A DNA stretch of 5,139 bases from positions 1 through 5,139 of IMG/VR virus record IMGVR_UViG_2751185961_000001; one strand, 5' to 3'. This DNA is from a virus. Its lineage: Duplodnaviria > Heunggongvirae > Uroviricota > Caudoviricetes. The position numbers were made by a program, and so were the translations under genes. Each line of letters opens with the position of its first letter. Position 1 is the first letter of the stretch. Below the pieces are notes generated by a model. It saw only the letters and a program-made list of their open reading frames with translations, searched no databases and was not told where the DNA came from. This document shows positions 1 to 5,139 of the stretch, piece after piece.

Positions 1-77
1 TCCACTTTGCAAGCGCCGCCACAAAATACCCAGCCAACAGACAACAAAAAAATCACTCCCCAGCATTAACGCATTAA

Positions 78-103
78 CCCGGCCTCAGCGCCGGGTTTTT
101 GTT
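78..103 (+). terminator. Rho-independent terminator, probably closing an upstream + strand (immunity-region) transcript
   Basis: Stem CCCGGC (78-83) pairs with GCCGGG (90-95) around a 6-nt loop, followed by TTTTTGTTG (96-104). The reverse complement has no U-tract, so it is + strand specific. Stop codons in two frames (67-69, 72-74) sit just upstream, consistent with the 3' end of a gene that starts before the window. Confidence 0.6.
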
Positions 104-312
104 GCCTGCACATAACTATCAGGACAGCACCTGCCAGCCAGCCCAAGCCTCTGATTAAATTACTATAATTCTTAATACAACTCCCATATCCCGCCATCTC
201 GTCACCACCTACTTCGCTCGTTTTTCGAACTTTTCAGCACACCATCCTGCTGTTTCCCCCGCCTTAAGTAAGCAAACCCATCGCGGGGAAAACTATTTAC
301 ACAAAAAAATCA

Positions 313-390
313 TACACATAACGTGTCACACCCTTATTTTACACATTTTGTGATTGACCATTAAATCACAATATGTGACTATTATTTCCA
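313..390 (+). promoter_or_regulatory. Putative pL-like early promoter with overlapping operator palindromes
   Basis: Candidate -35 TTGACC (355-360) and -10 TATTAT (380-385), with a rather long 19-bp spacer. A 24-bp palindrome TTGTGATT-N8-AATCACAA (348-371) overlaps the -35. A second near-palindrome TCACA-ATA-TGTGA (366-378) and a related site GTGTCACA (323-330) share the half-site TGTGAY/RTCACA. About 190 nt upstream of the N-like gene start. Confidence 0.4.
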
Positions 391-428
391 TCAGCAGGAC
401 GCTGGTAGCCAAACGGAAAAGATTGGCA

Positions 429-476
429 GGCTCTTTAAACAACGTCGAACACTCGACTACGTGGCTGAAAAGCCAG
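429..476 (+). promoter_or_regulatory. Putative nutL-like site (boxA plus candidate boxB hairpins) in the N leader
   Basis: GGCTCTTTAAACAA (429-442) resembles the boxA consensus CGCTCTTTA / rrn TGCTCTTTAACAA. Two short hairpins follow: GTCGA-ACAC-TCGAC (444-457), and TGGCT-GAAA-AGCCA (462-475), which has a purine-rich loop like lambda boxB. Position between promoter and N gene is as expected for nutL. Confidence 0.4.
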
Positions 477-573
477 ATCACCCAACCACATAAGCTGTGG
501 GATGCAATGCCGAAGCAACCGTCTCAGGAGGAGCTTCGAGATTGCATCGCCAAAGTTTATTCGGGAGGAATCT

Positions 574-846
574 ATGTCCAGAAAAACAGAATTTAAAGGC
601 ACCGCAGCTTCTCGCCGTAGAGCTCGTCGCGCAAACCTGCAAAGTCAGGAGTCGATTAGCTCCGACAAGCTACACAGGCCAACCCCTTCACGAGTGGTCT
701 TGCAATGCAAGCGCAAACCAGCAATGAGAGCAGAAGTTATAACTCTGACAACGTTGACCAGAAAATATGAAGGTTCAACTTGTCTTCCAAACGTAGCCAT
801 TTACGCTGCAGGCTACCGTAAATCCAAACAACTGACAGCAAGATGA
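574..846 (+). CDS. N: Transcription antitermination protein N (phage 21 / P22-type)
   Basis: 90-aa basic protein; ATG at 574 preceded by GGGAGG (563-568) with 5-nt spacing. N-terminal arginine-rich motif KGTAASRRRARRANL closely resembles the phage 21 N boxB-binding peptide GTAKSRYKARRAEL and the lambda/P22 N ARMs (recalled from literature). The C-terminus AIYAAGYRKSKQLTAR resembles recalled N-family C-termini. Sits just downstream of the operator/promoter and boxA-like element. The in-frame upstream ATG at 502 lacks a good RBS. Confidence 0.7.
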   Translation: MSRKTEFKGTAASRRRARRANLQSQESISSDKLHRPTPSRVVLQCKRKPAMRAEVITLTTLTRKYEGSTCLPNVAIYAAGYRKSKQLTAR

Positions 847-907
847 CTTGTGTTGGTCGCCAGAAAATGAAATTAGGCAGCAAACCACTTATTTGAGAGG
901 AATTAAT

Positions 908-1531
908 ATGTCATCAATCCGCTTAACTACGAGAATGAAAGAGGAAATCGCTCGTAACGCTTTAATTAAGTCCGGGGTGTTCACTGAACTTGAAGAAGTA
1001 ACAAAGTTAAAGAACCAGCTTGCACTTGACGCCAGAGTTATTGCGTTTGGCGGGAAAAAGAAAACCGAAGGAGTGGACCAGCTGGCATCAAAGTTAATGG
1101 CTGCAAGTGAGGAACTTCAAAAGCTGGGATGTTCATTTTACTCATGCGATGTCAGTTCATGTTCGATTTATCTGACTGTATCTGGAAGAAGGGTTGGCTG
1201 GCATTCATACGGAAAAGACGGCAACGGTGAAGATATATTGCTCCCTACCCCCGACAAAGATAAATGCATGTTTGACGCAGAACACAAAATAACAAAAAGG
1301 TTTGATGAAATCTGCGCATTGCAACAAAAACTTGAAGCCAGGAAAAAGGATATAGAATCAAACGTATGGGCTGCTTTGAACTCAGTCACAACAGTTAAGC
1401 GACTTATTGAAGTTTGGCCTGAAAGCAAAGAGTTGCTACCAAAAGAAGCAGATAAAGCAAGTGCAGCACTTCCTGCTTTACGGGTAGAAGATTTGAATAA
1501 GATGATTGGACTTCCTTCCGAGGCCGCATAA
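908..1531 (+). CDS. Hypothetical protein (207 aa) in the variable cargo slot between N and cIII; cysteine cluster C-x4-C-x4-C
   Basis: ATG at 908 with RBS GAGAGGA (895-901) at 7-nt spacing. The ORF is long and clean, and visibly more AT-rich than its neighbours. Contains GCSFYSCDVSSCSIY (Cys 75/80/85) plus His99, Cys120, His126, flanked by charged helical-looking segments. I recognise no family. Its own intrinsic terminator overlaps the stop codon. Confidence 0.6.
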   Translation: MSSIRLTTRMKEEIARNALIKSGVFTELEEVTKLKNQLALDARVIAFGGKKKTEGVDQLASKLMAASEELQKLGCSFYSCDVSSCSIYLTVSGRRVGWHSYGKDGNGEDILLPTPDKDKCMFDAEHKITKRFDEICALQQKLEARKKDIESNVWAALNSVTTVKRLIEVWPESKELLPKEADKASAALPALRVEDLNKMIGLPSEAA

Positions 1532-1546
1532 TCGGCCTTTATTTTT
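1521..1546 (+). terminator. Rho-independent terminator (tL1-like) at the end of the 207-aa gene
   Basis: Stem AGGCCG (1521-1526) pairs with CGGCCT (1533-1538); the 6-nt loop CATAAT contains the TAA stop codon (1529-1531); followed by TTTATTTTT (1538-1546). + strand specific. Confidence 0.6.
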
Positions 1547-1575
1547 GGCATAAACAACAGAATAAACACTGCACT

Positions 1576-1603
1576 GTGTATTCATTCCAACGAGTGAATA
1601 CAC
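1576..1603 (+). promoter_or_regulatory. Perfect 9-bp inverted repeat (operator-like site or RNA hairpin) in the intergenic region before cIII
   Basis: GTGTATTCA (1576-1584) and TGAATACAC (1595-1603) are exact reverse complements around a 10-nt spacer. No U-tract follows, so it is not a classical terminator. GGAG lies immediately downstream. Confidence 0.35.
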
Positions 1604-1665
1604 GGAGCAATGTCGCTCGTAACCAAACAGGAGCCGACTTGTTCTGATTATTGGAAATCTTCTTT

Positions 1666-1690
1666 GCCCTCCAGTGTGAGGGCCTTTTTA
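1666..1690 (+). terminator. Rho-independent terminator-like hairpin (tL2-like) upstream of cIII
   Basis: Stem GCCCTC (1666-1671) pairs with GAGGGC (1678-1683) around loop CAGTGT, followed by CTTTTTA (1684-1690). A weaker hairpin AACGC / GCGTT (1704-1723) followed by a T-rich run lies just after it. Confidence 0.5.
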
Positions 1691-1751
1691 TATGCATACC
1701 AATAACGCTTCACTCGAGGCGTTTTCGTTATGTATAAATAAGGAGCACACC

Positions 1752-1877
1752 ATGCAATATGCCATTGCAGGGTGGCCTGTTGCTGGCTGCCCTTCCGAAT
1801 CTTTACTTGAACGAATCACCCGTAAATTACGTGACGGATGGAAAAGAGTTGAGGTCTTATTATGCGCAATGAAATAG
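1752..1877 (+). CDS. cIII: cIII protein (FtsH inhibitor) with a short, divergent C-terminus
   Basis: 41 aa, MQYAIAGWPVAGCPSESLLERITRKLRDGWKRVEVLLCAMK. The first ~31 residues match my recollection of lambda cIII (MQYAIAGWPVAGCPSESLLERITRKLRAGWKR...) almost exactly, including the amphipathic ESLLERITRKLR core. RBS AGGAG (1741-1745) is 6 nt upstream of the ATG. Below the 60-aa cutoff of the ORF track; the listed ORF 1692..1877 is an N-terminally extended version of the same frame. Confidence 0.65.
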   Translation: MQYAIAGWPVAGCPSESLLERITRKLRDGWKRVEVLLCAMK

Positions 1878-2014
1878 CCATCAATCACCAGATGCTTCGT
1901 GCTGCACAAAACAAAGCAGTAATAGCCAGATTTATTGGTGATTCAAAAATGTGGCTTGAAGCAAATAAAGCGATGAAATCAGCTATCAACCTTCCGTGGT
2001 ATCGCAGGAAATGA
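1862..2014 (+). CDS. kil: Kil-like host cell-division inhibitor peptide (50 aa)
   Basis: ATG at 1862 overlaps the cIII 3' end by 16 nt, as kil overlaps cIII in lambda. Translation: MRNEIAINHQMLRAAQNKAVIARFIGDSKMWLEANKAMKSAINLPWYRRK. The segment IARFIGDSKMWLEA resembles my uncertain recollection of lambda Kil (…IATFIGDEKMFREA…). Size and position fit. Not in the ORF track (under 60 aa). Confidence 0.45.
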   Translation: MRNEIAINHQMLRAAQNKAVIARFIGDSKMWLEANKAMKSAINLPWYRRK

Positions 2015-2118
2015 GTTTTACAGATAACTGGTCAGACGAAGAATTCATTCGTCAGATGAACAAAATGCTCAATCAGCACAAAGAACAGGAGAAAGATGAT
2101 GATTCTGACTCTGAATGA
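2011..2118 (+). CDS. Small hypothetical protein (35 aa), acidic C-terminus
   Basis: ATG at 2011 overlaps the stop of the Kil-like ORF (ATGA), and its 3' end overlaps the next gene by 23 nt. Translation: MSFTDNWSDEEFIRQMNKMLNQHKEQEKDDDSDSE. No independent SD sequence; could be a coupled gene or spurious. Confidence 0.3.
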   Translation: MSFTDNWSDEEFIRQMNKMLNQHKEQEKDDDSDSE

Positions 2119-2407
2119 TAAGCGTGAAATATCGCAAATAATCGCAAGTTTTACTGATAAAGATTACGAACGAATCAACAGTGAAGTTGATCGCCTCTGC
2201 AAACGTTGCGACCCAATAAGCGAAATGCTTCGCTCATATAAACCAGATGAACACACTAAGGACGCTATCGACTGGCTGGAAGATGATGACTGTAACTATC
2301 AGGAAAAAGCCGCTGAATGGTTCTGGGATGCAATAACCGAAAGAGTTAAGGCTGAATATGCCTTCGCAATATTCAAACGCAGACATATTTATGGAGAAGC
2401 AGCATGA
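2096..2407 (+). CDS. Hypothetical acidic protein (103 aa), translationally coupled to recT
   Basis: ATG at 2096 with RBS AGGAG (2087-2091) at 4-nt spacing. Its stop TGA overlaps the recT start (ATGA at 2404-2407). Asp/Glu/Trp-rich (…DWLEDDDCNYQEKAAEWFWDAITERVKAEYAFAIFKRR…). Occupies the position where Gam or Abc-type RecBCD modulators sit in lambda and P22, but I see no similarity to lambda Gam. Confidence 0.6.
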   Translation: MMILTLNDKREISQIIASFTDKDYERINSEVDRLCKRCDPISEMLRSYKPDEHTKDAIDWLEDDDCNYQEKAAEWFWDAITERVKAEYAFAIFKRRHIYGEAA

Positions 2408-3315
2408 GCAATATCGTTGAATTCGTTAAACAGCAAGAGCAGTTATTCTGCGGAGCATTGACTGAACAGACGGTGACATGGGCTAAGGAAAGCCAGTTTG
2501 CAATTCAGTATTTCCAGAAAAACGATTACCTGGCTAAAACAGCACTGGCAAATCCAACCAGCGCACAGAACGCCATCATCAATGTTGCGGCGATCGGAAT
2601 CACCTTAAACCCGGCCAGCAAACTTGCTTATCTAGTTCCGCGCGACGGCATTGTTTGCCTTGATATCAGCTATATGGGATTGCTCCATATTGCAATGGAG
2701 TCTGGTGTTATCTCATGGGGTCAGGCAAAACTTGTTCATGCTAACGATACCTATGAGTCAAACGGGCTTGATAAATCACCAACCCATAAATACAACGCCT
2801 TCGGTGATCGTGGTGATATCGTTGGCGTTTACTGCACAGTTAAGACGCCAGCAGGTGATTATCTAACGGAAGAGATGAGTCTGGCTGAAATTGAGGCTGT
2901 AAGGAAAACAAGCAAGGCAGCATTCAGCGATAAAGGACCATGGGTAAATCACTGGAATGAGATGGCACGAAAGACGGTCGTAAAGCGTGCAAGCAAGTAT
3001 TGGCCTAAGGCATCACGTCTTGATAGTGCTATTCACGTACTAAACGAAGAAGAAGGTGTATGGACTGAACCAGTTATGCCGCACAAATCAGAGGAAGATA
3101 TCCGCGAAGATGAACGGAAACGCCAGCAGGAAATAATGGATAAAGCACAACTTCTTTGCGATGAAATGGCTCAGGCAGAAAACATGGATGATTTGAAGCG
3201 ATATTTTGCAGAAGCATATCGCCTGACATCTGGAATGAAATTGCAGCAGAACGTACAAGCCATTTACATAGAATGCAAAGCGAAACTGGAGGTTGCCAGT
3301 GAGCAAACTGTATGA
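2404..3315 (+). CDS. recT: RecT-family single-strand annealing recombinase
   Basis: 303 aa; RBS GGAG 9 nt upstream. The segment GPWVNHWNEMARKTVVKRASKYWP closely matches the E. coli Rac RecT segment GPWVTHWEEMAKKTAIRRLFKYLP (recalled), and the N-terminal half has the RecT-like layout. Confidence 0.85.
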   Translation: MSNIVEFVKQQEQLFCGALTEQTVTWAKESQFAIQYFQKNDYLAKTALANPTSAQNAIINVAAIGITLNPASKLAYLVPRDGIVCLDISYMGLLHIAMESGVISWGQAKLVHANDTYESNGLDKSPTHKYNAFGDRGDIVGVYCTVKTPAGDYLTEEMSLAEIEAVRKTSKAAFSDKGPWVNHWNEMARKTVVKRASKYWPKASRLDSAIHVLNEEEGVWTEPVMPHKSEEDIREDERKRQQEIMDKAQLLCDEMAQAENMDDLKRYFAEAYRLTSGMKLQQNVQAIYIECKAKLEVASEQTV

Positions 3316-3781
3316 AATAGCCAATGAATACGCAAAGCTGATGGATTCAGATTTAGAGCCAGAGATGATTGCTGACACAATAGAAGGCATGGAAGGAGAA
3401 TTTACCGATAAAATAGAGCAACTTCTTGCCATTATTAAAAATGAATCTGGTTATGCTGAACGCCTCAAGGACGAGGCAAAGTCACTGAATGAACGAGCAG
3501 CAGTAATTCAAAATAAGATTGATAGCATTATGGCATATATAGCGTCATCGCTTGAAATGGTTGGCAAGAAAAAGATTCGAGCAGGTATTCACCAGGTAAC
3601 AATCCGCAAACCGTCAGAAACTGTAGAAATCATCGACTCAAGCGCCATTCCTCCTGAATACGTTGAGTTTGAAACGACAATTAAAGCCGACAAGTTGGCA
3701 ATCAAGCACCAACTAAAAGCAGGAATAAATATCCCAGGTGCTCAAATCAAGGTTGGGAAACCTTCACTTCTTATCAAATAA
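3299..3781 (+). CDS. Siphovirus Gp157-family protein
   Basis: The frame is open from 3293 (TTG); the best start is GTG at 3299, with GGAGG (3288-3292) 6 nt upstream. It overlaps the recT 3' end by 17 nt. Landmarks (N-terminal KLYEIANEY, central GKKKIRAG, C-terminal IPPEYVEF) match my recollection of the Sipho_Gp157 family, which typically sits next to RecT/Erf/Sak recombinases. Confidence 0.65.
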   Translation: MSKLYEIANEYAKLMDSDLEPEMIADTIEGMEGEFTDKIEQLLAIIKNESGYAERLKDEAKSLNERAAVIQNKIDSIMAYIASSLEMVGKKKIRAGIHQVTIRKPSETVEIIDSSAIPPEYVEFETTIKADKLAIKHQLKAGINIPGAQIKVGKPSLLIK

Positions 3782-3792
3782 CGGTATCGCCT

Positions 3793-4107
3793 ATGAAAAA
3801 GACTCCATGGGAGAAATGGGAAGTCGATTTCTTGCGCGAAGTAGCGGCGACAATGCCAGTTGAAGTTATCGCTGAAAAACTGGAAAGGACTGAAAAAGCA
3901 GTAATGGCGAAAGCAACAAGGATTGGCGCTGACATTGTTAGCCGACTTCGTGGAAGACGATGGACAAGAGCCGAAGTATCACTTTTCGGTAAGTTCTCCG
4001 CAGAAGAAATAGCAATTGCAACCTGCCGCTCAATTTATTCAGTAAGAGCTATGCGATACAAGCTAAAAAAACTCGATGAAGAAAGAGCAGGCATACGAAT
4101 AAATTAA
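3793..4107 (+). CDS. Hypothetical protein (104 aa) with two tandem helix-turn-helix-like repeats
   Basis: Internal duplication: WEKWEVDFLREVAATMPVEVIAEKLERTEKAVMAKATRIG versus RRWTRAEVSLFGKFSAEEIAIATCRSIYSVRAMRYKLKKL. Both follow the pattern W-x2-E-x2-L…E(V/I)IA…R(T/S)…AV, reminiscent of SANT/Myb-type helix-turn-helix repeats. Weak SD. Confidence 0.55.
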   Translation: MKKTPWEKWEVDFLREVAATMPVEVIAEKLERTEKAVMAKATRIGADIVSRLRGRRWTRAEVSLFGKFSAEEIAIATCRSIYSVRAMRYKLKKLDEERAGIRIN

Positions 4108-4123
4108 CATGGGGTAATTAACA

Positions 4124-4405
4124 ATGAAGCTAAACATCGACCTCGGAAAATACGTTATTACCGGAACCAAACACGACCTGATTCTTAGCGAAAGAGGAAT
4201 TATCAAAGAAGGCGAGAATGCAGGGAAAGAAACACTAAGTCGTATCGGTTATTACAGCAAGTTTGAGCATCTGGTTAAAGAGTTATGCAACCGTGAAATC
4301 CTGTTATCTCAGGCGCAGACGCTACAGGATATTCAGCAGCATATCGAAACTTTAGGTATGTCACTTAGCATGGCTATTGACCAGTTCGTTGAGAGTAAAT
4401 CATGA
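4124..4405 (+). CDS. Hypothetical protein (93 aa)
   Basis: ATG at 4124 with GGGG 9 nt upstream; clean ORF. Its stop overlaps the next start (ATGA at 4402-4405). No family recognised. Confidence 0.5.
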
Positions 4406-4566
4406 GAGGACTTGCATACAATCCCGGCATTCTTCCGGCAGAAATGATTATTCGCCAACGCGTAAAGCCAATGCCATCGAGAGAGGAATTGCTTAAGAGA
4501 AATTCTTTTCCATCAGTAAATCAAAACAAATATCTGAATGCGATGTTGCGGAGTGGGAAGAAATGA
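4402..4566 (+). CDS. Small hypothetical protein (54 aa), translationally coupled on both sides
   Basis: ATG at 4402 overlaps the upstream stop; its TGA at 4564-4566 overlaps the ATG of the next gene at 4563-4565. Translation: [54 protein letters not shown]. Not in the ORF track (under 60 aa). Confidence 0.4.
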
Positions 4567-5048
4567 AACAAATGTCACTAATTGAGATGGATGGATTTCT
4601 GAAAGGTAAATGCATCCCCCGAGATTTAAAGGTTAACGAAACAAACGCTGAATATCTTGTCCGTAAGTTCGGTGAACTTGAATCAAAACTAGAAACGGCG
4701 TTGCGGGAGTGTCGTTCTTCTGGAATCACGATTGATAACCTTGAGGCCAAGTGCGCGGCGCTGGCAGCGGAGAGTGCGGGGATGAAGAAGTTCTGCAAAG
4801 ACGCTGCATTCGATGCCGATTACGAAGCAGAGCTAGGTATGGAGCGTGGTGGATTCAGTGATGCGCTTAACGAAATCAAAACCCCAGCCACCGATGCTTT
4901 CCTGGCTGAAATTGAACGCAAAGCAATCCGCAAGTTTATTAACAGCATTGAACACATCCTGCGTGACAAGCTGTCACCGTATGACACCGAAGAGATGCTT
5001 GAGGCTATGCGTATTTTTCTGGAAGAACAGGGAGTTGAGCAAAAATGA
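4563..5048 (+). CDS. Hypothetical protein (161 aa), predicted helical / coiled-coil
   Basis: ATG at 4563 with GGAG 9 nt upstream. Charged, Ala/Glu/Leu-rich sequence. Its stop overlaps the next start (ATGA at 5045-5048). Possibly an early-region Ea-type accessory protein, but that is a guess from position only. Confidence 0.55.
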
Positions 5049-5139
5049 CGATCACAAAACAACGAGTAGAAAAAATCATATATCGCCATGAAATGGGACT
5101 GAACAGCGATGTCACTGCCGAAGAGGTTTATGACCTGGC
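5045..5139 (+). CDS. Hypothetical protein, 5' fragment (continues past the window end)
   Basis: ATG at 5045 overlaps the upstream stop. The frame stays open to the window edge ([31 protein letters not shown]…). Confidence 0.4.
   Translation, partial: MTITKQRVEKIIYRHEMGLNSDVTAEEVYDL

Follow-up and report, generated by a model that had tools for sequence, protein, structure and literature searches.

We analysed a window of 5,139 nucleotides (nt), i.e. the whole stretch of DNA under study, which derives from a virus of the Caudoviricetes (IMG/VR record IMGVR_UViG_2751185961_000001, positions 1 to 5,139). The window is the entire contig MECV01000090.1 of assembly GCA_001722155.1 (100% identity over 1-5139); sequence past position 5139 can therefore be examined in relatives only. 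Every long open reading frame (ORF) with a match to a known family is encoded on the + strand, and together they make up the early-left (PL) operon of a lambdoid prophage of gut bacteria. Within this operon, a conserved unit is composed of four + strand genes: a 102-amino-acid (aa) acidic protein (2099-2407; GamL takes this place in other genera), the single-strand annealing protein RecT (303 aa; 2404-3315), a protein of the Sipho_Gp157 family (160 aa, GTG start; 3299-3781), and a 104-aa protein with two helix-turn-helix (HTH)-like repeats that resembles P22 Abc1 and Mu gp9 (3793-4107). The unit thus holds an annealing protein with no exonuclease at its side. An initial annotation of the window had described a two-gene pair, RecT and an overlapping Gp157-family gene. 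This pairing is borne out by the Pfam and PHROG matches of both proteins and by the overlap of their genes; the unit, however, actually comprises four genes, is widespread, and was already annotated in public phage records.

The product of the gene at 2404-3315 matches the RecT family (Pfam: PF03837) with E=1.5e-31 and 110 bits (cut-off 24) over residues 31-217, and PHROG 148 with E=6.6e-91; its sequence match to the solved RecT structure 7UB2 is weak (E=0.007). Going by family membership only, we regard it as a putative single-stranded DNA annealing protein. One mEpX1 record names this protein 'Bet', and public annotations are inconsistent (cf. PV340543.1). For the neighbouring Gp157 gene, the mechanically derived ORF opens at TTG 3293. 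The start is likely GTG 3299, which lies six bases after a GGAGG (3288-3292) and agrees with the public gene call; with this start, the protein has 160 aa and its gene overlaps recT (TGA stop at 3313-3315) by 17 nt. In the phages mEpX1 (gp33, L002 11397-11837) and Gally (L041 4743-5183), Gp157 has been called from an internal ATG, and these 146-aa versions lose a conserved N-terminal LYE motif. The protein matches Pfam PF05565 with E=1.3e-36 and 126.4 bits (cut-off 28.6) along the complete profile (positions 1-162 of 162).

The four genes are closely packed, with a 4-nt overlap (the stop of the 102-aa gene and the start of recT share ATGA), a 17-nt overlap and an 11-nt gap. In a scan of the window, neither a strong internal promoter nor a + strand terminator was found after 1723. 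Hence, the genes look co-transcribed and are possibly translationally coupled.

The two outer genes of the unit are less readily classified. The 102-aa protein has no match in Pfam and belongs to PHROG 3486 (E=2.8e-59); its gene takes the position of GamL or lambda Gam in sister modules. It is found upstream of RecT in all 80 viral contigs and in nine genome loci, and GamL ('gam-like host nuclease inhibitor') stands in its place in seven loci, one of which (L022) is a weak case (E=7e-5). With a pI of 4.8 and a net charge of -7, the 102-aa protein is similar to GamL (L007 6987-7268) in size, pI (~4.7) and charge (~-7). An identity as a divergent GamL was rejected, since no homology is detectable (hhalign E=0.08), and P22 Arf was rejected as well; the protein may be an inhibitor of the DNA-mimic type. 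The 104-aa protein falls into PHROG 323 (E=2.8e-20), as do P22 Abc1 (E=1.3e-23) and Mu gp9 (E=5.2e-29). BLASTP links it to Mu gp9 (E=5e-5) and returns no match to P22 Abc1; the label 'similar to P22 Abc1' given in phage Gally is therefore without BLASTP support and rests on the PHROG level and on slot equivalence. As to the latter, one locus (L029) carries a close homolog of P22 Abc1 (E=2e-29) in the slot after Gp157. PHROG 323 is labelled 'transcriptional regulator, D5-like', and these three members adjoin genes for end protection or annealases: Mu gp9 (L038 5482-5781) lies directly upstream of gam, P22 abc1 (L043 6971-7255) after erf, and the gene of the window (3793-4107) after Gp157. Instead of transcription factors, these proteins may be accessories of recombination or of anti-nuclease functions.

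The unit is common among enterobacterial phages and prophages. Sixteen complete phage records match the four-gene core, 14 of them over at least 80% of its length, and identities amount to 96-99% in mEpX1, HK140, Kapi1, Gally, Louie, PDP110P1 and others. The order 102-aa gene, RecT, Gp157, 104-aa gene is found in 80 out of 80 viral contigs; the scan of viral contigs with the RecT core gave nothing but 99%-identical copies and hence contributes numbers, not diversity. A further 21 genome loci belong to Citrobacter, Enterobacter, Erwinia, Yokenella, Atlantibacter, Siccibacter, Leclercia, Lonsdalea, Salmonella and Serratia. In all 18 of them with intact upstream sequence, RecT is directly upstream of Gp157, and the proteins of the module are 57-97% identical across many genera, with intact reading frames. 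A seeming exception from Pseudenterobacter timonensis (L026), with Gp157 but without RecT, was dismissed because an insertion of the IS3 family (transposase OrfA and OrfB, 6738-7942) lies directly upstream of Gp157, where recT is expected. Three further RecT-Gp157 loci (L020, L023, L028) come from assemblies labelled Actinomycetes MAG, Micromonospora and Streptomyces. They are Serratia-like, ~70% identical to the enterobacterial loci and situated on short contigs, and probably represent contamination.

In other prophages, the same genomic slot is filled by Sak4+SSB+Abc2, by GamL+RecT+YqaJ+SSB+Abc2, or by Erf+Abc2. The second of these is a sister module, and in it the YqaJ exonuclease holds the gene slot that Gp157 holds here; some genera possess the combination GamL-RecT-Gp157. 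In Salmonella phage SEN22 (L040 3498-5510), the two flanking genes of the unit (PHROG 3486 and Abc1-like) enclose a PD-(D/E)XK exonuclease of the DUF3799 family (273 aa) and a 189-aa protein, which stand in place of RecT and Gp157. The 189-aa protein (PHROG 11517) has no Pfam match and could be an unrecognised annealase.

No exonuclease family of Pfam or PHROGs was found among the nine complete + strand ORFs of the window that were scanned, as the initial annotation had stated; the short N and cIII ORFs were identified from precomputed Pfam matches only. The last ORF had been described as a 31-codon fragment that cannot be judged. It is indeed a fragment (ATG 5045, running to the end of the window; 5045-5139, + strand), but it can be aligned to the N-terminal end of hypothetical proteins of 101-105 aa in related phages, a size too small for an exonuclease. 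The annotation had furthermore left two options, an exonuclease downstream of 5139 or none at all. The record holds no sequence past this position, and the downstream regions of relatives settle the matter in favor of absence. The annotated PL operons of E. coli A65EC and mEpX1, from cI to int, contain no exonuclease, nor, according to precomputed Pfam matches on gene calls, do four further prophages (two from Salmonella, two from Serratia), in which the region covered extends from cI past int into host genes. None is annotated in the complete genomes of HK140 and Kapi1. A phmmer search at maximum sensitivity with YqaJ and DUF3799/RecE-like seeds, covering all six-frame ORFs, returned nothing at E<=0.01 in HK140, Kapi1, PDP110P1 and seven other loci. 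Even with the Pfam threshold relaxed to E<=1, the unannotated proteins downstream of the module in relatives show no match related to nucleases, and no cognate 5'-3' exonuclease (PF09588, RecE, DUF3799) occurs in the 21 genome loci or on the + strand of the 80 viral contigs. Since near-identical modules in complete phages and operons also have none, between cI and int or elsewhere in the phage genome, the absence is real: the module is without an exonuclease in every complete relative examined.

What sets this RecT apart from its YqaJ-paired counterpart is its C-terminal part. The protein is divided into an N-terminal annealing core (residues 1-220; 2404-3063), which includes the Pfam domain, and an acidic C-terminal tail (residues 221-303; 3064-3315). 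The core is 68% identical to that of the YqaJ-paired RecT (L007), with a sharp fall to 14% identity over the last ~83 residues. Gp157-paired RecT proteins share 72-97% identity in the core and 47-78% in the tail. The tail is specific to the partner: tail type A occurs with Gp157 in 80/80 viral contigs, and tail type B with YqaJ in 34/34. The L029 locus shares 97% identity with the window in the RecT core, compared with 69% in the tail and 62% in Gp157; hence, a breakpoint is indicated at the same core/tail junction. For 13 non-redundant loci, the divergence of Gp157 tracks the divergence of the tail (Mantel r=0.63, p=2e-4) but is not correlated with that of the core (r=0.12, p=0.14). The Red-beta protein of phage lambda uses its C-terminal domain to bind lambda Exo and host SSB (PMC6393309), and recombination requires this domain (PMC5052646). 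By analogy, the tail of RecT probably contacts Gp157, as the tail of Red-beta does lambda Exo. The switch of the tail and its co-divergence with Gp157 lend indirect support to the RecT-Gp157 interaction raised in the initial annotation.

For Gp157, the initial annotation referred to a family of unclear mechanism with a historical link to phage-sensitivity phenotypes, a description that is outdated. A profile built from Gp157 matches 12,195 cluster representatives at E<=0.001, and the protein itself matches PHROG 253, named 'Mu Gam-like end protection', with E=7.5e-53. Its match to the Mu Gam family of Pfam (PF07352) stays under the cut-off (E=0.006; 16.9 bits against 28.3), with residues 42-161 aligned to positions 30-147 of 149. 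A deep profile of 143 diverse Gp157 members gives Mu Gam proteins 12-18 bits (per-sequence P ~1e-6), and hhalign of this profile with Mu Gam reaches E=2.9e-4 at a probability of 40%, restricted to the C-terminal ~55 residues (beta region). A shallow profile-profile comparison was insignificant, so that modest support comes from the deep profile only; sequence searches of the PDB with the shallow and the deep profile reached no Gam structure. The motifs R..PS.V.I..D and [DN]K.AI are common to the Gp157 family and Mu Gam. For another member of the Gp157 family, HHpred has reported a link to the Gam structure 2P2U with 99.4% probability (PMC10530707). The AlphaFold2 model of Gp157 (pLDDT 81) consists of a 68-residue helix (21-88) and, after it, a small beta domain; fold-based searches of the PDB gave no informative match. 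The conserved residues are spread over the long helix, with a further conserved motif at D131-K132. Several lines thus point to Gp157 as a distant relative of Mu Gam, an end-binding nuclease blocker.

The best match of the Gp157 model outside its own family in BFVD is a PD-(D/E)XK protein of 398 aa from the Tsukamurella phage TIN4 (Foldseek E=2e-3, 118 columns). In this protein (Orf36; L160 6643-7839, minus strand), the nuclease domain covers residues 5-261 and also matches DUF2800, and the C-terminal ~125 residues, to which the Foldseek match applies, open with a Gp157-like 'LYEL...D' motif. The sequence match of Gp157 to the protein is marginal (2.3 bits, P=0.008). In Orf36, a nuclease and a Gp157-like domain may thus be joined in one protein, which we give as a lead only. 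The possibility that Gp157 is itself a cryptic PD-(D/E)XK nuclease was rejected: no D...(D/E)xK triad is conserved across 144 diverse members, position E123 varies in the family (K/R/V), and the D131-K132 motif corresponds to N-K in Mu Gam.

Taken together, we favor with moderate confidence a model in which the window carries an exonuclease-free RecT module whose end-binding Gp157 works with RecT on single strands generated by the host. According to this model, RecT would anneal single-stranded DNA, and Gp157 would bind or protect the ends of double-stranded DNA (dsDNA) while being coupled to RecT, probably via the C-terminal tail. The single strands would come from host enzymes, replication forks or rolling-circle tails, as in the Erf/Abc system of P22. 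The 102-aa acidic protein and the Abc1-like protein are candidate modulators of host nucleases. The contact between RecT and Gp157 is inferred, as linkage alone could yield the co-divergence of tail and Gp157, because the coding region of the tail adjoins the gp157 gene. A bolder proposal, which we put forward tentatively and with some doubt, is that Gp157 might be a dedicated RecT partner in a nuclease-free two-component recombinase, i.e. a Gam/Ku-like protein that docks on the RecT tail and loads RecT at ends which host enzymes unwind or resect. If so, the Gp157 family – found beside Erf, Sak4 and RecT across phyla, and maybe fused to PD-(D/E)XK nucleases in actinophages – would serve as a general adaptor for annealase loading and not as a mere nuclease inhibitor.

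Alternatively, Gp157 could be a stand-alone nuclease blocker like lambda Gam, which shields linear phage DNA from RecBCD without being specifically linked to RecT; adjacency of the two genes would then reflect shared timing and operon position. We consider this rather unlikely. The distant relationship to Mu Gam, which protects ends alone (PMC10530707), is in line with it, and so is the scarcity of Chi sites, a pattern of RecBCD-inhibiting phages described by Bobay et al. (PMC3784561): two of three complete module phages have no Chi site where 2-3 are expected (Kapi1, L045: 0 vs 1.9; PDP110P1, L044: 0 vs 3.0). The third, HK140 (L039), however, keeps four sites in one orientation within structural genes (2143, 13519, 15106 and 16201), compared with 2.7 expected on both strands. 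These mixed counts come from three genomes that share mosaic modules and do not decide between a blocker and a partner. Other observations speak against a blocker acting alone: the co-occurrence of GamL and Gp157 in the seven loci mentioned above (one of them weak) argues that Gp157 is not simply a Gam substitute, its gene is in the position of the exonuclease and not in that of Gam, and the type of the RecT tail is perfectly associated with the partner.

It is improbable, in our view, that an exonuclease is supplied in trans – from elsewhere in the phage, from another prophage (e.g. RecE of Rac), or as a host 5'-3' exonuclease such as RecJ – and that Gp157 is irrelevant to resection. The window is admittedly a 5-kb contig of a draft genome, and E. 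coli genomes often hold several lambdoid prophages with other recombination modules. However, the free-living phages HK140, mEpX1, Kapi1 and PDP110P1 carry the same module, and no exonuclease was found in them; the module therefore works without one of its own in whatever host they infect. Moreover, the model favored here already relies on host enzymes; this alternative differs from it only by denying Gp157 a role.

Even less probable is a Gp157 that supplies resection itself or by recruitment, as a cryptic nuclease or as an adaptor domain like the one possibly fused to PD-(D/E)XK nucleases of actinophages. Its place in the exonuclease slot and the Foldseek match to the TIN4 protein, with the Gp157-like motif in the C-terminal part, would fit such a role, but the catalytic triad is not conserved, the D131-K132 motif is common to the non-nuclease Mu Gam, and the sequence match to TIN4 is marginal. 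Finally, a decayed remnant, in which the exonuclease was lost from a defective prophage and recT-gp157 is non-functional, might be suspected from the short contig, the many defective prophages of E. coli and the IS3-family element in place of recT in L026, but is hardly credible given four intact genes in complete-genome phage records and in 80/80 viral contigs, and it is contradicted by the identity levels and intact frames of the module proteins across many genera.

The remainder of the window agrees with the gene order of a lambdoid PL operon, and all of its genes are on the + strand. Upstream of the module are N (574-846) and cIII (1752-1877), both recognized from precomputed Pfam matches for the gene calls of the contig, and kil (1862-2014; Pfam: Lambda_Kil, E=1.7e-20). 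Between N and cIII lies a gene for an Nmad5 ('nucleotide modification associated domain 5') protein (908-1531; Pfam: Nmad5, E=7.3e-68), which is present in some relatives and missing from others and, because of this variation, is taken as a mosaic insert. The downstream context is non-nuclease and consists of DUF5405 (4124-4405), DUF2737 (4402-4566) and a 161-aa protein of PHROG 614 (4563-5048). The gene of the last also lies downstream of other recombination modules, namely Sak4+SSB+Abc2 and GamL+RecT+YqaJ. At the end of the window, the last 44 bases (5096-5139) match PhiR12-type phages and diverge from the closest relative (L013), which is 99.8% identical up to 5095. Judged by these alignments, the contig ends at a mosaic junction inside the gene of the 101-105-aa protein, and this junction probably explains the assembly break.

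The genes of the module are already annotated in RefSeq and in PHROG-annotated phage records, and the arrangement is common. In the literature searched, neither the pairing of RecT with Gp157 in enterobacterial lambdoid phages nor the equivalence of Gp157 with the exonuclease slot or the partner-specific RecT tail has been described. Recombineering is built on RecT and Red-beta systems, whose activity on dsDNA is believed to require a cognate exonuclease able to bind the tail of the annealase. Here, a very common enterobacterial module swaps the exonuclease for a Gam-like protein and carries a RecT tail to match. If the pairing is functional, it would represent a second way of coupling an annealase to DNA ends and would give a testable role to the Gp157 family with its more than 12,000 sequence clusters; the module could also be a source of compact cassettes for recombineering in which linear donor DNA is protected. 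Furthermore, if Gp157 blocks RecBCD, surveys that score RecBCD inhibitors by lambda Gam and Abc2 only (PMC3784561) would misclassify these phages.

Among the closest known systems are GamL-RecT-YqaJ (L007) and RecET/lambda Red (gam-bet-exo). Like the module of the window, they follow cIII/kil, precede the ea genes and int, and have the order small acidic protein, annealase, partner. The RecT core is shared with GamL-RecT-YqaJ, and an identical GamL gene lies upstream in some genera with the Gp157 module. In that system, however, the partner is a PD-(D/E)XK 5'-3' exonuclease instead of a 160-aa Gp157, the RecT tails are unrelated, and the gene that follows is SSB-like instead of Abc1-like. A two-component exonuclease/annealase system has its cognate exonuclease beside the annealase, and in this respect the module of the window does not belong to the type.

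P22 provides a precedent, as it has no exonuclease and redirects RecBCD. Its module arf-erf-abc1-abc2 is likewise part of the PL operon and combines an annealase without exonuclease and small accessory proteins with an Abc1-family gene just after; the window shares this last feature through PHROG 323 and through the slot in L029. The annealase of P22, however, is Erf rather than RecT; P22 has no Gp157 and possesses the RecBCD-modifying Abc2 (PF11043), for which the Pfam scan of the window gave no match and which is present in alternative modules of the same slot. In phage Mu, a Gam protein similarly adjoins gp9, an Abc1-like protein with two HTH-like repeats, but the gene order is reversed with respect to the window, no annealase lies beside gam, and Mu Gam is assigned to PHROG 491 whereas Gp157 is in PHROG 253.

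In Firmicute phages, gp157 or Mu-gam-like genes, besides DUF1351 and DUF2483, are the usual neighbors of erf and sak4, and RecT has been reported with YqaJ or DUF3799 exonucleases, or with DUF1351 (PMC8093625). An annealase module without exonuclease is thus not the exception that the initial annotation took it for: P22, the Sak4+SSB+Abc2 modules and the erf/sak4 modules of Firmicutes have none. As here, a gene of the Gp157 family is a recurrent neighbor of the annealase in the Firmicute modules (PMC8093625); there, gp157 precedes an Erf or Sak4 annealase; in the Gram-negative lambdoid phages, it is downstream of RecT and overlaps it.

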